5,525 bases of DNA, taken from a virus. Location: UHGV virus genome UHGV-0388295; one strand, 5' to 3'. A program made the position numbers and the translations under genes. Under the pieces are notes generated by a model, which worked only from the letters and a program-made list of their open reading frames with translations, did not search any database and had not been told where the DNA came from. Positions 1 to 5,525 of this stretch are shown here, piece after piece. Position 1 is the first letter of the stretch. The number at the start of each line of letters is the position of its first letter.

Positions 1-560
1 ACTACGTATGCTTTTTCTTCTTGTTTGTTGGCATAGTAGTTTTTGAATATATCCCAGTACGCCAGATTGAATATCGCAGGAAATCTTCGGAGGTATTGAT
101 TTACATTGGATCGTCCGAATCCTTTTATTCCCAAGTATGAGAGCAGCGAGCTCGGATTGACTTGCCCTCTGTTGGTGTCGTTTTCATAGATTGATGTATT
201 GGCTGTGTATACTTGAAATTGCGGCAGCAGCACCTTGCTCATGTTCAACCCTACTCCTAACGCGTTGTTGTGCAGCGCTGCTATATAGAGTCTGATCGGA
301 ATTACGAATATGTCGATTTGATGTTTGAAGCTGCCGAATACAGGTCCGGTCGTCGGCAGTGTTTTTACTTTTGTCGTGATATCGATGTAAAATGTCGTTC
401 CGTCCATACCTATCTGGCACCAATAGGGAACGATTGTACCGCATGCTTGTGATGTTCGGATTATTTTTCCTACGTTATGCGATGATCTGCCGAAATTAGG
501 CAGATATACTTCCATTTTGCTTTCGCTTCGGATTCTGTCTCCTCCTAATGTTTTTTTCAT
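1..560 (-). CDS. VP1: Major capsid protein VP1, N-terminal part. The gene is split by linearisation of a circular genome and continues in frame at 5525..4040.
   Basis: The reverse-strand translation from ATG 560..558 runs to position 1 with no stop: MKKTLGGDRIRSESKMEVYLPNFGRSSHNVGKIIRTSQACGTIVPYWCQIGMDGTTFYIDITTKVKTLPTTGPVFGSFKHQIDIFVIPIRLY... It has the Microviridae VP1 N-terminal jelly-roll signature (…IVPY…GDxF…FVxPxRLxW). This differs from the 86-aa ORF in the track at 184..444, which is in another frame. The two nucleotides left over at position 1 plus the complement of 5525 form GTC, and the frame continues into ORF 4040..5491. Confidence 0.85.
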   Translation of the reverse strand, partial: MKKTLGGDRIRSESKMEVYLPNFGRSSHNVGKIIRTSQACGTIVPYWCQIGMDGTTFYIDITTKVKTLPTTGPVFGSFKHQIDIFVIPIRLYIAALHNNALGVGLNMSKVLLPQFQVYTANTSIYENDTNRGQVNPSSLLSYLGIKGFGRSNVNQYLRRFPAIFNLAYWDIFKNYYANKQEEKAYV

Positions 561-563
561 GGC

Positions 564-869
564 TTATTTTGTTTGATTGTTTTTCATTTCTTCGTTTACG
601 TGCAGGATGAATATGAATGTTGCGGTCAGGATGTCTTCCCATTCTTTTTTGGCTATGTGTTCTTCGGCTTCCTCTTTAGTGTCGAATTCCTTTCCGTTCA
701 AGAGCGATCCGCACATTGTGATCACCCATTTGTTTTTTTTGTTGCGGATCAGCACGAATATGCCGTTTTCCGATTGCTCTCTTTCTTCGATTTCGAGGTT
801 TACGCTTTCGATTTCGTTCTCTTTTTTTCCGCTTTCAGCAAGTAGCTGTTTTCTGAATTTTTTGTCCAT
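564..869 (-). CDS. Hypothetical protein (101 aa). The C-terminal half resembles an AP2/Arm-type DNA-binding domain.
   Basis: The segment NKWVITMCGSLLNGKEFDTKEEAEEHIAKKEWE fits the GkW…G…fxTkeEAe…a pattern of integrase Arm-DBD / AP2 folds. The stop (TAA 566..564) lies 3 nt before the VP1 ATG. Confidence 0.55.
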   Translation of the reverse strand: MDKKFRKQLLAESGKKENEIESVNLEIEEREQSENGIFVLIRNKKNKWVITMCGSLLNGKEFDTKEEAEEHIAKKEWEDILTATFIFILHVNEEMKNNQTK

Positions 870-870
870 G

Positions 871-1041
871 TTACTTGGTTTTTGTTGTTGTCGATACTTC
901 GATTGTGTCGATTTTGATTCCGTTTGCTTTGAGGTAGTGTTTGTGAGTGCATCCTTGCTCCATGATTACGGCAGCTGCGGCGCCGATTGCGGCTGCTATT
1001 ACCGCGATCCATTTTACGATTTTCTTTGCTTTTTCATTCAT
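871..1041 (-). CDS. Small membrane protein (56 aa) with an N-terminal TM helix. It is not in the supplied ORF track, which appears to omit ORFs under 60 aa. Candidate lysis or membrane-anchor protein.
   Basis: Translated by hand: MNEKAKKIVKWIAVIAAAIGAAAAVIMEQGCTHKHYLKANGIKIDTIEVSTTTKTK. A basic N-terminus is followed by a 20-residue hydrophobic stretch. The start overlaps the upstream stop (tATGAaTGA), and the stop is followed after 1 nt by the next gene's ATG (TAAcATG). Both junctions are classic translational coupling. Confidence 0.5.
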   Translation of the reverse strand: MNEKAKKIVKWIAVIAAAIGAAAAVIMEQGCTHKHYLKANGIKIDTIEVSTTTKTK

Positions 1042-1393
1042 AGTTCAATGATAATTGAGTGTCGGTTTTTTTGATCATTACTATCCTTCTGATAATAGGT
1101 TCGTACAGTTGTTTTTTTTCGTTGTATATCCAGTTGCTTACCTCGTAGAAGCTGATGCCGGTTCTTTGTGGTTTTTGAGTTTCTACGTATTCCTTGTCGA
1201 ATGTTTCTCCGTCTTCTGTCACGTAGAATGTTCCTTCGTATTTGAAGTTTTGTTTGGATACTGCTTCTACACCGATTAGTTTTACAAGATTAGTGGATCT
1301 GTCTCCGATGTCTCCTCTTCCTTTGGAGATTTTATTATCCTGTTTCTGGTCAATATATTCTCTATTTTCCTGATTGCGAATTCCGTTTCCCAT
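1034..1393 (-). CDS. Hypothetical protein (119 aa) in the accessory region.
   Basis: The ATG lies 3 nt after the Rep stop (TGAaatATG). The protein has a polar, basic N-terminal third followed by a beta-rich segment (FKYEGTFYVTEDGETFDKEYVE). Codon usage matches the neighbouring genes. No homology was recognised. Confidence 0.55.
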   Translation of the reverse strand: MGNGIRNQENREYIDQKQDNKISKGRGDIGDRSTNLVKLIGVEAVSKQNFKYEGTFYVTEDGETFDKEYVETQKPQRTGISFYEVSNWIYNEKKQLYEPIIRRIVMIKKTDTQLSLNYE

Positions 1394-1396
1394 ATT

Positions 1397-2308
1397 TCAC
1401 GAATTAATTTCTCTTTCTTTATGATCAGGTCCGCATATGCCTTGCATACTTCTTTCTTTTCTCTTTCCGTCATACTTTTTGATTGACTGCCAATATTTTA
1501 CTGCGTGTACATACTCTTTATATTGCTCTATTGTTTCTACTTTGATAGGAGTTTTGTTGTAGTACTTTACTTGTTTTTCCTCTTTTATGATCCGGAGGGC
1601 TTCGCGTTCTTGATCCGTCCATATTTTTTGTCTGTAGTATGCTGGTAGTGCTGTTTTTATTCCTGAATTTGTTCTGTATGTTTCTTCTGTGAGTTTATCC
1701 TGATATCTATGTCTGTTGAGTGTGTTTTTGTTTATGTAGCTTATTCCGATTTTTTTTGAGGTGAATATTTTTCCGTTGAATTCAGGGTTGTCTTCGTCTT
1801 TTTTCGTTATGTATTTTATGATATAGTTTATTGTTCTTTCGTTTACTTCATACCCGAAGAATACCCAGCCGTACCCCCATTCTTTTTCGAATTGTTCCTC
1901 TGTTAGTTCTGTCCATATAATGCCGTGTAGATGTATTCTTTTGGTATTGTCGTGTCCCATTTCTGTGATTAGCCAGTGTTTGAGTGGTTTTTTATGCTTT
2001 TTCCACCATCGTTTTCTGAATAGGCTGATTGCTTTTTGAGGTGTTTTGTTCGGTTCGTTTTCGTCATATTCTAATTTTTTTAGGCTTTCTTCGGAGAACG
2101 TCAGCGTTGCAAATATAGTATTTCTTGGATTGGATTTTATTTCTTCCATCAATCTTACTCTCCATTCATTTGCTTTTGCGCGTCTGCATTCTTCGCAGTG
2201 TCCGCATGGAATTTGGATCCATCTCAGACGACGGTCTCTTATTCTTTTAGCATTTTCGTTCGATTTGGCGTACTTTGGATTCTCTATGGTACTTGGATAT
2301 AGACACAC
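1397..2308 (-). CDS. VP4: VP4 replication initiation protein (rolling-circle HUH endonuclease, 303 aa). The apparent start codon is GTG.
   Basis: The protein begins MCLYPSTIENPKY. A Cys-rich element (IPCGHCEECRR) is followed by motif I (IFATLTF), HUH motif II (HLHGIIW) and motif III with two Tyr residues (NYIIKYITKK). These are hallmarks of Microviridae Rep. Between the in-frame upstream stop (TAA, 2335..2333) and the GTG at 2308 there is no ATG. Confidence 0.9.
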   Translation of the reverse strand: MCLYPSTIENPKYAKSNENAKRIRDRRLRWIQIPCGHCEECRRAKANEWRVRLMEEIKSNPRNTIFATLTFSEESLKKLEYDENEPNKTPQKAISLFRKRWWKKHKKPLKHWLITEMGHDNTKRIHLHGIIWTELTEEQFEKEWGYGWVFFGYEVNERTINYIIKYITKKDEDNPEFNGKIFTSKKIGISYINKNTLNRHRYQDKLTEETYRTNSGIKTALPAYYRQKIWTDQEREALRIIKEEKQVKYYNKTPIKVETIEQYKEYVHAVKYWQSIKKYDGKRKERSMQGICGPDHKEREINS

Positions 2309-2346
2309 TGCTTTTAATTGAATTTTCCCCCTTTAAAATCATTTTT

Positions 2347-3555
2347 CTACCATTTTGTTGTTACGGTTTTATCTACTCCTTTAAATTTCATCTCCGGATC
2401 GTAGTGTTGTGTTACTGTCGATGAATTCTTGGGGGGTGTTTCGTTCATCCTTCTTTCCGTGTATTCTCTGATTGCTTTTCCTGTTTTTCCGCCGATTGCC
2501 AGGTTTCCCACTAATTGTGCCAGTTTGATGATTGTATTCGCTATTTCGGTCCAATATTGGAGTTCTCGCAGGTCTGCGGTTGCTTCTTCGGTTCTCTTTT
2601 TTGCTTCGAGTACTTTTGCTTCTGCTTTTTGGGTTTCGCCTGCTGCGTAGAAGTAAGCTGCTTGAGCCATTGCGCTGCATGCGTCCGCGTTTATTTTTTT
2701 GATTTCTGTCGATAGTTTTTCGTCTGCATATATGCTTTCCAGAGTTTTGATTGCCGCTGTTCCTTCGAGGATTTGTTTTTCGGCTTTCATCATATCGCCC
2801 TGGAATGATTCTTCTCCGAATACGATCTTTCCGAATTTATCGTCTTCTATTTCGAAGTATTTAGGTATCTCGACTTCTTTGCCGTCGATCGTCGTTTTTT
2901 TCGTGGGTTGCCATTTTACCATTTGGTCCCATAGTTGGTTTGCCGTATCGATGAAACCTTTCCACCCTTCGAACATCTCTTGTTTTACTTGCCACAGTCT
3001 TTTTTCGACTATCGATTGGGTTTCCTCTTGGTTTTTGCCTGCTTCCGCTTCGAGTGCTTCTGCTTGCGTATTGAGTAGTTTGATTTCTGCCTCGTTCTTT
3101 CGTTCGTTCATCCGCACCTGTCGCAATGACATCAATGCCTGCAGTTGCATATTCGGATCGGCTGCTGATCCTGCTCCTGTAGCTCCTGTTGCACCCATTG
3201 GAGCACCTGTTGTCGAACCGGCTCCTCCGCCTCCGGCACCTCCTTTGCCGTACATCAGACCGGGAGACAATCCCGCTGCATCCATTTGCGCGACTTGGTT
3301 GGCGTAACTTTGGTCTTGATAGGTCCTGTTGTATAATACTTGCTGTCTTTCGAATGCATTCTCCGCCGCCATTTCTCCGTATTTGTAATTTATTTTGGCT
3401 GCATTCTCTGCCATCTCTTTCTGCTGCCTTATCTGTCTTCTTCTGCCTATGCCCAGCGTGTTGAGGATTCCCGATGCATTACCTATGATTCCCGATAAAG
3501 GGTCCATAACATCCTCTCCCTTTTCGAGTAATTCTGTTAGTTTTTTAAAGCTCAT
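2347..3555 (-). CDS. VP2: VP2 minor capsid / DNA pilot protein (402 aa).
   Basis: The N-terminus is MSFKKL…GIIG…QQKEM…AENAFERQQ…AAGLSPGLMYG. A Gly/Ala/Thr low-complexity linker follows (GGAGGGGAGSTTGAPMGATGATGAGS), then a long K/E/A/Q-rich predicted coiled coil. The size and position (after VP1, before Rep) are typical of Microviridae VP2. Confidence 0.75.
   Translation of the reverse strand: MSFKKLTELLEKGEDVMDPLSGIIGNASGILNTLGIGRRRQIRQQKEMAENAAKINYKYGEMAAENAFERQQVLYNRTYQDQSYANQVAQMDAAGLSPGLMYGKGGAGGGGAGSTTGAPMGATGATGAGSAADPNMQLQALMSLRQVRMNERKNEAEIKLLNTQAEALEAEAGKNQEETQSIVEKRLWQVKQEMFEGWKGFIDTANQLWDQMVKWQPTKKTTIDGKEVEIPKYFEIEDDKFGKIVFGEESFQGDMMKAEKQILEGTAAIKTLESIYADEKLSTEIKKINADACSAMAQAAYFYAAGETQKAEAKVLEAKKRTEEATADLRELQYWTEIANTIIKLAQLVGNLAIGGKTGKAIREYTERRMNETPPKNSSTVTQHYDPEMKFKGVDKTVTTKW
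3163..3249 (-). repeat. Low-complexity imperfect tandem nucleotide repeat (gctcctgt/gcacctgt/gctcctcc units) encoding the Gly/Ala/Thr-rich linker of VP2.
   Basis: Read directly from the sequence. It corresponds to VP2 residues about 103-131. Confidence 0.5.
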
Positions 3556-3650
3556 TTTCGTTCTTTTTTTAAAAAGAATTTATACCTATAGTTCTTGTTA
3601 TATATGTATAAATGTCTACCGCTCTGTGCCACATATATTTACGAGGGTTA
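3556..3650 (-). promoter_or_regulatory. AT-rich leader upstream of VP2, a putative promoter/operator region. It includes the AT palindrome ttcttttt-tt-aaaaagaa at 3561..3578.
   Basis: This is the only noncoding stretch longer than 40 nt. The palindrome abuts the VP2 ATG at 3555. No exact Bacteroides-type TAnnTTTG -7 element was found, only near-matches (TAAATTCT). Confidence 0.3.
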
Positions 3651-3681
3651 AAAGAGGGGGGCGGAAATATCCCCCCTCTTT
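3651..3681. terminator. Perfect 11-bp stem (aaagagggggg / cccccctcttt) with a 9-nt loop (cggaaatat). Putative intrinsic terminator, or a candidate replication-origin or packaging hairpin.
   Basis: Read directly from the sequence: 3651-3661 pairs with 3671-3681. The G6/C6 runs are unique in an AT-rich genome. T-runs follow the stem on both strands. It sits 30 nt downstream of the stop of the 107-aa ORF, inside the only large intergenic region. Confidence 0.4.
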
Positions 3682-3711
3682 GAGTTTTTGGTAGATCTTT
3701 ATACGACTGCT

Positions 3712-4035
3712 TTAGCTTTTTTCGGGATCGGTTTTTCCTTCTGTCTCGAAATTTTTCGCAGCCTCGGTTTCGCCTTTGTTTTTTGCGATTTGGCTTGCTG
3801 CGCTTTGGTTGATTTTATCCATTGCGTCTATCGCTACTTCGAATCGATCTGTTCTTATGTCGTATTCGGGTCGCACTCCATCTTTTTTTTCCGTGTAGAT
3901 TGTCGGGAATACTCCATCCTCCATGTTACTGGCTTCTCCGCTGATTATCTTTCTTAGTTTTACTTCCCTCGGTTCTGCCTCGTAGGTAAGGTCTGGATTA
4001 TCGATACATCCTTTTCTACTTTTTGCTGTTTTCAT
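3712..4035 (-). CDS. Hypothetical K/E-rich protein (107 aa) between VP1 and VP2. Possibly a scaffold or internal protein; this is by position only.
   Basis: The ATG at 4035 lies 4 nt after the VP1 stop (TAAtaccATG), suggesting translational coupling. The strand is consistent with the other genes. No homology was recognised. Confidence 0.5.
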   Translation of the reverse strand: MKTAKSRKGCIDNPDLTYEAEPREVKLRKIISGEASNMEDGVFPTIYTEKKDGVRPEYDIRTDRFEVAIDAMDKINQSAASQIAKNKGETEAAKNFETEGKTDPEKS

Positions 4036-4039
4036 GGTA

Positions 4040-5525
4040 TTATAAATTTGGAATTTGTTTTGCTGACATTACTCGACGTGCTGTTACGTCGAACGCTACT
4101 TGTACCCAGAAGTTCTGTGAACTTAATCTCGACTCTGCGAATATGCTGTTGTATATTGTAGGGTCGATGTATGTCGATGCGTTTTTGATCGAGCCGTTAG
4201 TATTTTCTTCGTATACTCTGTTTAAGCACATGAATGCTAAAGGCATTCCCGCGGCGAATTCGCCGTACGTTTCGTTCACGTCTGTTGTGTATTCGATCCA
4301 TGACGGTTGTTTTCCTAATGATTGGTACGTTTGTTTGTAGTTTTCAGTGGTTTCTGTGCTCCATGCAGCTGCTTCTTCTGCTATCAGTTCTTGAAATCCG
4401 ATTGCGTCCAACGTTGGCTTATGGAAGTCATCCATATTTTGCAGTCTTGTCCACCATTTGTTGCCTTGGCTGTAATCGATTCGGGGAGTAATCGATCCTA
4501 AGGCCATGATCATGCTTGGTTCTGTGCATTTGATTTTCAAGCCCCTTCCGGATTTGTACATGGTTGCGACTCCTCGGCCGGCAAGTGTTCCTAATGGCTC
4601 TTCCTCTGTTGCTGAGTTCGATACGATTTCGTCGAATGCGATTTCGCTCTGCATTCCGCCGCAGAATATAGGAGATTCGGGTAGTGTCGTGCTTCTGATT
4701 CCGTATGTCGCCTCTCTCCATGCCTGGTAGGTACCGTCTGTAATGGCTACGCGGTTCAGCATGTTGAAAATCTTCTTTTGGAGGATCAGAGCATCCATCG
4801 TAAGTTTTCCGTCGCTCACATCTACCGCCGTGATCGCGTTGATCCCTCCGGTCGTTCCGTCGATCCATTCGGTGTTCAGCCAGTTGTTGAACCTGTCGCT
4901 GAGGTATGTTTTTACCGCTAATCCCGCTTGCGAGAACCATGCGTTTGAGCTGTGATATGTTTTTGTGCGGTCGTAATTCGGCAGGTCGAGAGTCCCTGTT
5001 GCTGCCCCGTATGGCAATTTTCCATTATTCATTATATATGCCGAGGAGCTGGGTGCTGCTAAGATTGCACTCCGTTCGTCGTCGATGTTTTTTAATGGAA
5101 ATTGTGTTAGTTTGATTTTTTGGTTATTCGGCATTGTTATCGGATGTTCTCCGTCTAAACCCATGTTGTATGCGATCTTGATGCTCTTTTTGATTTTGTA
5201 TGCGAAGACTTTGGTTGCCTTCTTCGGGTCCTTCGGCTCCCTGAGCCCCAGCGCTTCCGGATCTGTTCGTTCGAATATAAAAGAGTCTCCGAGTTTTGTT
5301 AGTTTGTTGGTTTTTAATGTAGGATTTTCCGGATCATTCGTTAGAAACTGGATTTCATTGACCGTTTCGGGTGAGACGTTCTCCTCGAACTCTATCTTGA
5401 TGTACTTCGGAAGTTTTTCCGACGGTTCGATGTGGTATGTTGTAGTCTTGTTGGTCTTCCATGTTGTTGCCCAGGTGACTCCGCCTCCCATGCTGATGCT
5501 CTTCCAGATATGGTCTACTCCAGTG
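4040..5525 (-). CDS. VP1: Major capsid protein VP1, C-terminal part (stop TAA at 4042..4040). The ORF stays open to the window edge.
   Basis: The 483-aa ORF carries VP1-like motifs: AWFSQAGL…Y, LQKKIFNMLNRVAITDGTYQAWREATYG, LGTLAGRGVAT, PSWIEYTTDVNETYGEF, and a C-terminus …RRVMSAKQIPNL. The 34 nt upstream of the annotated Met, out to position 5525, are stop-free in the same frame (…VTGVDHIWKSIS-MGGG…). This part joins the N-terminal part at 1..560 to give about 681 aa in total. Confidence 0.9.
   Translation of the reverse strand, partial: TGVDHIWKSISMGGGVTWATTWKTNKTTTYHIEPSEKLPKYIKIEFEENVSPETVNEIQFLTNDPENPTLKTNKLTKLGDSFIFERTDPEALGLREPKDPKKATKVFAYKIKKSIKIAYNMGLDGEHPITMPNNQKIKLTQFPLKNIDDERSAILAAPSSSAYIMNNGKLPYGAATGTLDLPNYDRTKTYHSSNAWFSQAGLAVKTYLSDRFNNWLNTEWIDGTTGGINAITAVDVSDGKLTMDALILQKKIFNMLNRVAITDGTYQAWREATYGIRSTTLPESPIFCGGMQSEIAFDEIVSNSATEEEPLGTLAGRGVATMYKSGRGLKIKCTEPSMIMALGSITPRIDYSQGNKWWTRLQNMDDFHKPTLDAIGFQELIAEEAAAWSTETTENYKQTYQSLGKQPSWIEYTTDVNETYGEFAAGMPLAFMCLNRVYEENTNGSIKNASTYIDPTIYNSIFAESRLSSQNFWVQVAFDVTARRVMSAKQIPNL

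Follow-up and report, generated by a model that had tools for sequence, protein, structure and literature searches.

The group of gut microviruses named 'Alpavirinae' comprises the Bacteroides and Prevotella proviruses BMV1-7 together with genomes from the human gut (Krupovic & Forterre 2011; Roux et al. 2012; Family 5 in Kirchberger et al. 2022). These viruses have been described as sharing only the genes VP1, VP2 and VP4, plus a conserved open reading frame (ORF) after VP1 (Roux et al. 2012; Krupovic & Forterre 2011), and an internal scaffold has been proposed as the product of the ORF at that position (Krupovic & Forterre 2011). More broadly, Suborder III is marked by the gene order VP1-VP2-VP4 and by a hypervariable insertion in VP1 (Kirchberger et al. 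2022); in gokushoviruses, the corresponding insertion forms a protrusion on the particle surface (Roux et al. 2012; Kirchberger et al. 2022). In the present work, we analysed the virus genome UHGV-0388295, a stretch of 5,525 nucleotides (nt) that was examined at its full length (hereafter, the window) and that is written as the reverse complement of its coding strand. Our analyses indicate that the window is, almost certainly, one complete unit: the circular 5,525-nt genome of an uncultivated member of the Microviridae, cut open inside the gene for the capsid protein VP1. Nothing is missing or broken in this genome, and the split VP1 is an ordinary effect of writing a circle as a line.

The cut point lies between the second and third bases of VP1 codon 187. 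On the minus strand, an ATG at 560-558 opens 186 stop-free codons (MKKTLGG...EEKAYV) that extend to base 3; G at position 2 of the window and T at position 1 are left over. At the opposite end of the window, the minus strand reads, from position 5525, C and then ACT GGA GTA GAC CAT ATC TGG... When position 1 was joined to position 5525, codon 187 became GT+C = GTC (Val), the peptide over the junction read ...EEKAYV-VTGVDHIWKSIS-MGGG..., and the predicted coding strand over the 1|5525 junction was ...GCATACGTAGT|CACTGGAGTAGAC... The 5' part of VP1 accordingly occupies 1..560 on the minus strand (codons 1-186 and the first two bases of codon 187), and the 3' part occupies 4040..5525 on the same strand, where base 5525 (C) ends codon 187 and is followed by codons 188-681 and a stop at 4042-4040. 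In the circularised sequence, these two parts formed a single ORF of exactly 681 amino acids (aa). The frame 5524..4043 was open up to the edge of the window; a naive frame-1 translation from 5525 meets stops only because it begins at the last base of the split codon. Only a 483-aa ORF (4040-5491), which starts at the internal Met199, appeared in the ORF list, because the ORF tool leaves out any frame that is still open at the edge of the sequence. The two ends of the window share no direct repeat of at least 8 nt, and any assembler overlap must therefore have been trimmed already. An earlier note on this DNA had described a minus-strand frame running from ATG 560 without a stop to base 1, and had predicted that an in-frame join of the two ends (GT + C = Val) would yield a capsid gene of about 681 aa; both statements were borne out, with 186 codons plus GT on the one side and the predicted length found to the residue.

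The join was also found in assemblies made independently of the window. A protein identical to the 681-aa product (P0001) is on record as one contiguous gene, and it was located on two ENA contigs, L003 (10,040 nt) and L004 (5,634 nt), that came from two different analyses (ERZ28579091 and ERZ19649719). When the rotated window was compared with L003, positions 2566-8090 of that contig matched all 5,525 nt at 100% identity, and the junction lay inside this stretch; L003 contains 1.8 copies in tandem, which repeat every 5,525 nt exactly. L004 likewise matched the rotated window at 100% identity over the junction, and its perfect 109-nt terminal overlap reduces it to a 5,525-nt unit. Because P0001 is on record as one gene and both ENA contigs are identical to the window across the junction, the frame join goes beyond chance. 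L003 begins with 88 nt (1-88) that are AT-rich, unrelated to the phage and adjacent to the middle of VP2; this end is probably a scaffolding chimera.

Circular relatives were then used to examine the unit and its genes. When IMG/VR was scanned with VP1, 66 loci were obtained, from which 21 contigs with 83-85% nt identity to the window were taken as circular relatives. All 21 carried exact terminal overlaps (25-127 nt) that gave units of 5,522-5,535 nt, and once circularised and rotated, every one of them encoded a VP1 of 680-682 aa. Among them are contigs whose own cut points split VP1 at other residues (for example L034-L050), and in these, too, the full VP1 was recovered after circularisation; the splitting of VP1 is therefore a routine accident of linearisation. 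Substitutions were also counted by codon position in 22 aligned genomes (the window and the 21 relatives). Third codon positions took 59-71% of the substitutions in VP1 (64%), orf107, VP2, VP4 and orf56, and these five are therefore real genes under purifying selection.

Profile searches indicated that the two VP1 pieces are complementary parts of one capsid protein. The joined VP1 matched PHROG 514 (E 1.6e-39), as well as the Pfam family PF02305 (Phage_F) at 42 bits (cutoff 25), the latter over the C-terminal 210 residues only. When the pieces were searched separately, the N-terminal 186 residues matched PHROG 514 positions 21-165 (E 3e-9), and the 483-aa piece matched positions 244-514 (E 3.8e-30). 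In Pfam, the N-terminal piece reached 12.4 bits only and the 483-aa piece gave no Phage_F match by itself; that the joined protein passes the Phage_F cutoff while the 483-aa piece has no match shows the annotation cost of the split. Moreover, bajarodmic virus 724 (PQ006946.1), whose circular genome has 5,528 nt, has an annotated major capsid protein to which the joined VP1 aligned by tblastn in one piece, over residues 1-681 and at 56% identity; at least 80% of the joined VP1 was covered in 82 phage records. In an alignment of eight sequences (the window and seven diverse relatives), residues 186/187 were aligned without a gap, and the column of Val187, the residue of the split codon, was V in seven of the eight. 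The profile built from this alignment matched the solved capsid of gokushovirus EC6098 (8DES) with an E of 1.4e-13 in two colinear blocks, in which profile positions 22-92 corresponded to chain residues 25-95 and positions 426-573 to residues 318-465; the VP1 5' piece matches residues 25-95 of 8DES. Between its conserved blocks, VP1 was hypervariable among the relatives at about residues 190-390 (alignment columns ~205-400), and the cut point of the window falls at the boundary where the N-terminal conserved capsid core ends and this long variable insertion starts. The variable stretch is the counterpart of the insertion from which gokushoviruses build their protrusion (Roux et al. 2012; Kirchberger et al. 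2022).

Taken together, these comparisons agree with the other proposals of the earlier note. A whole circular Microviridae genome with VP1 across its cut was seen in the contiguous, 100% identical sequences of L003 and L004 and in the 21 circular relatives; the placing of the VP1 N-terminal motifs on one piece and the remainder on the other was mirrored in the divided matches to PHROG 514 and 8DES; and the set of VP1, VP2, VP4 and small ORFs on one strand of about 5.5 kb matches that of circular GenBank microviruses. On both sides of the junction, L003 and L004 carried the same phage sequence, with neither stops nor host DNA, and the alignment of the joined protein ran through the junction. 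The note had further held that the ORF list misrepresents VP1 through two of its entries. This proved correct for the 483-aa ORF, which is truncated, but not for the 86-aa ORF (184..444, minus strand), which is out of frame and no piece of VP1. The frame of the latter is offset by 2 from that of VP1 (560-444 = 116, which is no multiple of 3), stops interrupted it in every one of the 21 relatives, and its first codon position took 79% of the substitutions within it, which is the third of VP1; it was rejected both as a gene and as a VP1 fragment. Another alternative frame inside VP1, Arg-rich and far longer than estimated from base composition, encodes 170 aa at 4428-4940 on the minus strand (198 codons open). 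As an overprinted gene it was rejected, with stops in all 21 relatives, and the 99-aa and 70-aa ORFs in alternative frames were rejected as well, with stops in most relatives.

Two other explanations could account for ends that join in frame. The window might be an excerpt of an integrated provirus or of a tandem integrated array, in which case the continuity of the frame from end to end would come from tandem copies. Integration is possible in this lineage, as a related provirus (L012) is flanked by host genes in Dysgonomonas sp. 521, and L003 with its 1.8 tandem copies ends in 88 unrelated nt. However, the length of the window is that of exactly one unit, with no host sequence in it, and both L004 and the 21 relatives are unit-length contigs with terminal overlaps of the type that assemblers produce. 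Moreover, the foreign end of L003 adjoins the middle of VP2, which would be an implausible attachment point, whereas the Dysgonomonas provirus has its junctions outside VP4 and on the upstream side of the small ORFs. We consider a proviral origin of the window very improbable. It is harder still to believe that the window is an incomplete linear contig with bases missing between its ends, so that the in-frame join would be a 1-in-3 coincidence. The terminal overlap that would prove closure is absent from the window, but L003 and L004 pass from base 1 to base 5525 at 100% identity without an intervening base, there is no gap at residues 186/187 in the protein alignment, and the unit length equals that of the relatives. 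That the same misassembly should have arisen in both public contigs is unlikely, given that they come from different ENA analyses (ERZ28579091 and ERZ19649719) and have different cut points.

Several points nonetheless weigh against the reading of the window as a complete, circular microvirus genome cut inside VP1. An AlphaFold2 model of the joined VP1 had a mean predicted local distance difference test score (pLDDT) of just 45.7, with core regions below 50; it was confident only in the insertion domain (about residues 190-330). The input alignment was shallow, with 30 sequences that were mostly 84-94% identical, and a second database search, made with the diverse profile for a deeper alignment, returned mostly the same abundant cluster. 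When the model was compared with the PDB by using Foldseek, microvirus capsids (8DES, 1KVP and 2BPA) ranked first, without reaching significance (best E 0.038, TM score at most 0.19). Given the low-confidence model and the non-significant Foldseek result, the jelly-roll fold of VP1 is a prediction from sequence-profile evidence only. In addition, the evidence for circularity comes from relatives and from contigs of identical sequence that were assembled independently. Finally, a stand-alone 5,673-nt contig (L011), which is a whole microvirus genome with 83% nt identity to the window, occurs in the assembly of Acinetobacter lwoffii SU1904 (scaffold_75), and it neither supports nor fits a host among the Bacteroidales, as discussed below; it is probably a contamination of the Acinetobacter isolate assembly and not evidence for a host.

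With the window closed into the circular genome described above, the coding order on one strand is VP1, orf107, a non-coding region, VP2, VP4, orf63, orf119, orf56 and orf101, and all of the conserved ORFs lie on the minus strand. The best VP1 identity among curated GenBank records was 56%, and the nearest curated genomes were faecal microviruses with 56-63% in VP1. Because megablast of the whole window against GenBank phages returned no match, this relatedness is visible at the protein level only. Two of these faecal microviruses were compared gene by gene. Bajarodmic virus 724 (from kangaroo-rat faeces) and the virus Microviridae sp. 7879-1612, from civet faeces (MG945452.1; circular, 5,728 nt), both have the gene order of the window and genomes of nearly equal size; common to all three are VP1, an ORF of about 107 aa, VP2, VP4 (303 aa) and small ORFs, on one strand. 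Identities to the window were 56-63% for VP1, 46-50% for VP4, 49-51% for orf107 and 31-45% for orf101, and a strong excess of A over T on the coding strand was shared as well. In contrast, VP2 was only 31-34% identical, and no counterpart of orf119, orf56 or orf63 was detectable in either genome. Both are different species from the virus of the window, and they probably belong to a different genus.

The comparison with the 'Alpavirinae' was made by means of published descriptions. As in that group, only VP1, VP2 and VP4 were recognisable in the window, with a conserved ORF downstream of VP1. Also alike are the large VP1 with its long insertion, the gut habitat and the existence of a related provirus in the Bacteroidales. 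The genome, at 5.5 kb, is smaller than that of BMV1, at 6.3 kb (Krupovic & Forterre 2011). None of the Bacteroides and Prevotella proviruses was returned when genome contigs were scanned, which suggests that those proviruses are more distant from the window. The name 'Alpavirinae' is absent from the NCBI taxonomy, and the accessions of the relatives did not occur in the supplements of Kirchberger et al. 2022 or in the text of Wang 2019.

The Gokushovirinae resemble the window in the match of its capsid profile to EC6098 (8DES) in two colinear blocks, in the Rep motifs and in the order VP1-VP2-VP4. The window does not fit this subfamily, because no VP3 or VP5 homologue was detectable; searches of PHROG and Pfam at E up to 10 returned none for any small ORF. 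VP4 was 26% identical to that of the gokushovirus used as comparator (Gokushovirus WZ-2015a, KT264754) and carries an extra N-terminal region with a Cys cluster, while VP1 exceeds the 566-aa chain of 8DES by about 115 aa. With the phiX174-type viruses (Bullavirinae), the window has in common an F-type capsid (Phage_F), an initiator of the HUH/YxxxY type and overlapping genes in a small circular genome. It differs in that no homologue of D (external scaffold), G (spike) or J was found in the window, and in that the Pfam capsid match is confined to the C-terminal part of VP1 given above. Both features of Suborder III, namely the order VP1-VP2-VP4 and the hypervariable VP1 insertion, were observed. 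The marks of the Microviridae as a whole were likewise present: a capsid protein of the F/VP1 type, an HUH initiator of the A/VP4 type, a pilot protein of the H/VP2 type, and a circular genome within about 4.4-6.5 kb with its genes on one strand. The virus itself is an architecturally ordinary microvirus, of which identical and near-identical sequences are already public in unannotated form. Its lineage is very common in public metagenomes, where VP1 has thousands of relatives and at least 120 clusters were listed at an identity of at least 87%.

The DNA pilot (minor capsid) protein, VP2, has 402 aa and is encoded at 2347..3555 on the minus strand; its sequence includes a stretch rich in Gly as well as charged helical regions. 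Seven PHROG families annotated as 'pilot protein for DNA ejection' matched it (best E 1.5e-6), and the proteins to which it showed the 31-34% identity noted above are annotated as DNA pilot protein/VP2 and are syntenic with it in PQ006946 and MG945452. It is the weakest match among the three hallmark genes. All 21 relatives had VP2 open, and third positions took 71% of its substitutions.

VP4, the HUH rolling-circle replication initiator (303 aa; 1397..2308, minus strand), matched Pfam PF23343 (REP_ORF2-G2P) at 46.3 bits (cutoff 27.8) and PHROG 942 (E 1.1e-31). It contains the motifs FATLTFS, HLHGIIW (HUH) and YIIKYITKK (YxxxY), of which FxTLTF, HLH and YxxxYxxK align with gokushovirus VP4, and its N-terminal Cys cluster, CGHCEEC, is conserved. 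Conservation among the relatives indicates that the true start of VP4 is the GTG at 2308 and that the 53-codon N-terminal extension (2150-2308) is under purifying selection. The extension was open in all 21 relatives, with 61% of its substitutions at third positions; the start codon is ATG in L015, L018, L019 and L023 and GTG in the window, L016, L021 and L026; and the Rep of PQ006946, which is also 303 aa long, aligned to VP4 from residue 1. Public gene calls begin VP4 at a downstream ATG, which gives 250 aa, and an exact-protein look-up of the 303-aa VP4 found nothing on record. At the other end of the gene, the last ~25 codons of VP4 overlap orf63, and no coding-type evolution was seen in the VP4 frame there.

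Directly downstream of VP1 lies orf107 (3712..4035, minus strand), a conserved acidic ORF that was open in 20 of 21 relatives, with 64% of its substitutions at third positions. Homologues were found at the same position in PQ006946 (49% identity), MG945452 (51%), the Dysgonomonas provirus L012 (44%) and L013 (45%); no PHROG or Pfam match was obtained. From its position, by analogy with the proposal cited above for 'Alpavirinae', orf107 may be a candidate for an internal scaffolding (VP3-like) protein.

The remaining small ORFs follow VP4, and none of them had a PHROG or Pfam match, even at E up to 10. The 63-aa orf63 (MTEREKKEVCKAYADLI...; 1282..1473, minus strand) overlaps both the tail of VP4 and the start of orf119, and it was present at 61-65 aa in 22 of 22 genomes. 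Within its own frame, third positions took 58% of the substitutions in the VP4-tail overlap and 42% in the orf119 overlap. As the only alternative-frame ORF to pass the conservation test, orf63 looks like a real gene; PHROG and profile searches assigned it to no family. It was missed by the gene calls of the public contigs. Next to it, orf119 (1034..1393, minus strand) is evolving fast: an ORF of 119-121 aa occupied its place in the eight relatives inspected, its aa identity to L011 was 66%, and just 44% of the substitutions in its non-overlapping part were at third positions. No homologue was found in PQ006946 or MG945452, and the 5' third of orf119, which overlaps orf63, may be untranslated.

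A small membrane protein is predicted from orf56 (871..1041, minus strand), which has a single, strong hydrophobic segment, WIAVIAAAIGAAAAVIM, followed by ..QGC, with a maximal 17-residue Kyte-Doolittle hydropathy of 2.44. This was the best-conserved small ORF (89% aa identity); it was open in 21 of 21 relatives, took 68% of its substitutions at third positions and had no significant family match. It may be a candidate lysis or membrane-anchored factor; no lysis gene is known for this group of phages. The last ORF, orf101 (564..869, minus strand), ends 3 nt before the VP1 ATG. It was open in all 21 relatives and has homologues at the syntenic position in PQ006946 (45%), MG945452, L012 and L013. 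Scans of the window for Rfam families and tRNAs found nothing.

The only sizeable intergenic stretch of the genome is the 156-nt non-coding region at 3556..3711 (minus strand), between orf107 and VP2. It contains an 11-bp G/C-rich hairpin at 3651-3681, AAAGAGGGGGG-loop-CCCCCCTCTTT, whose arms are 100% complementary and which is followed by T's. The DNA fold of this region reached -20.6 kcal/mol (z = -3.8 compared with shuffles), and among the 22 aligned genomes both stem arms were almost invariant while the loop varied. In PQ006946, the corresponding place is occupied by a perfect hairpin of 12 bp that differs from this one. Downstream of the hairpin, at 3592-3622, lies an invariant, AT-rich block of 31 nt, GCGGTAGAC(A/G)TTTATACATATATAACAAGAA. 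A consensus scan for sigma-70 promoters and terminators gave results at or below shuffle expectation and did not pick up the 3651-3681 hairpin. We infer that the hairpin is a putative terminator after the abundantly needed capsid and scaffold genes, and that the invariant block is a putative promoter or replication-origin element.

The one unusual feature observed is compositional and extends through the clade: the coding (minus) strand is markedly uneven, with 40.8% A and 16.9% T (AT skew +0.42), and T makes up just 11% of VP1 third positions. A skew of the same sign, from +0.18 to +0.52, was measured in all of the approximately 60 relatives fetched (L001, L002, L011 and L014-L079). In Dysgonomonas, the provirus had an AT skew of +0.26 compared with -0.06 and -0.14 in the host flanks. 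In the gokushovirus comparator, the skew was of the opposite sign, at -0.13, and phiX174 is T-rich. No discussion of the A-over-T skew of the gut clade was found in the literature. If T-richness marks the single-stranded packaged strand, the gut clade might package the strand complementary to its messenger RNAs (mRNAs), which we regard as improbable; to our knowledge, every characterised microvirus packages instead the strand of mRNA sense. The skew may perhaps reflect merely a distinct mutational or selective regime.

With regard to the host, the Dysgonomonas provirus (L012; VP1 41% identical to that of the window) belongs to a strain of the Bacteroidales, Dysgonomonas sp. 521, in which it is integrated at approximately 3200-8700 of NZ_QVMO01000010.1, between the host genes ROK/MeaB and Usp/TPR/GyrA. 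It consists of orf100, Amidase_2, VP1 (694 aa), orf105, VP2 and VP4. Upstream of its VP1, this provirus has the Amidase_2 gene instead of orf56. No provirus of the species represented by the window was seen. The host of the virus in the window is likely a member of the Bacteroidales, which is to be taken as a lead and not as a result.

The comparisons above show that the genome is circular, how long its unit is, which genes it carries and in what order, and that the genes are under purifying selection; the working of the phage can be proposed by analogy with phiX174 and the gokushoviruses. In such a scheme, 60 copies of the jelly-roll VP1 would form a T=1 shell around single-stranded DNA, and VP2 would pilot that DNA into the host. 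The HUH/YxxxY site of VP4 would then nick the double-stranded replicative form, after which VP4 would drive rolling-circle synthesis of progeny strands.

The window represents an abundant metagenome lineage that is without a close representative among the curated GenBank phage records. For the annotation of such genomes, the position of the cut matters: inside VP1, it leaves a truncated 483-aa ORF and hides the N-terminal 198 residues of the capsid protein, and rotation of the circle to VP1 restores the gene set.

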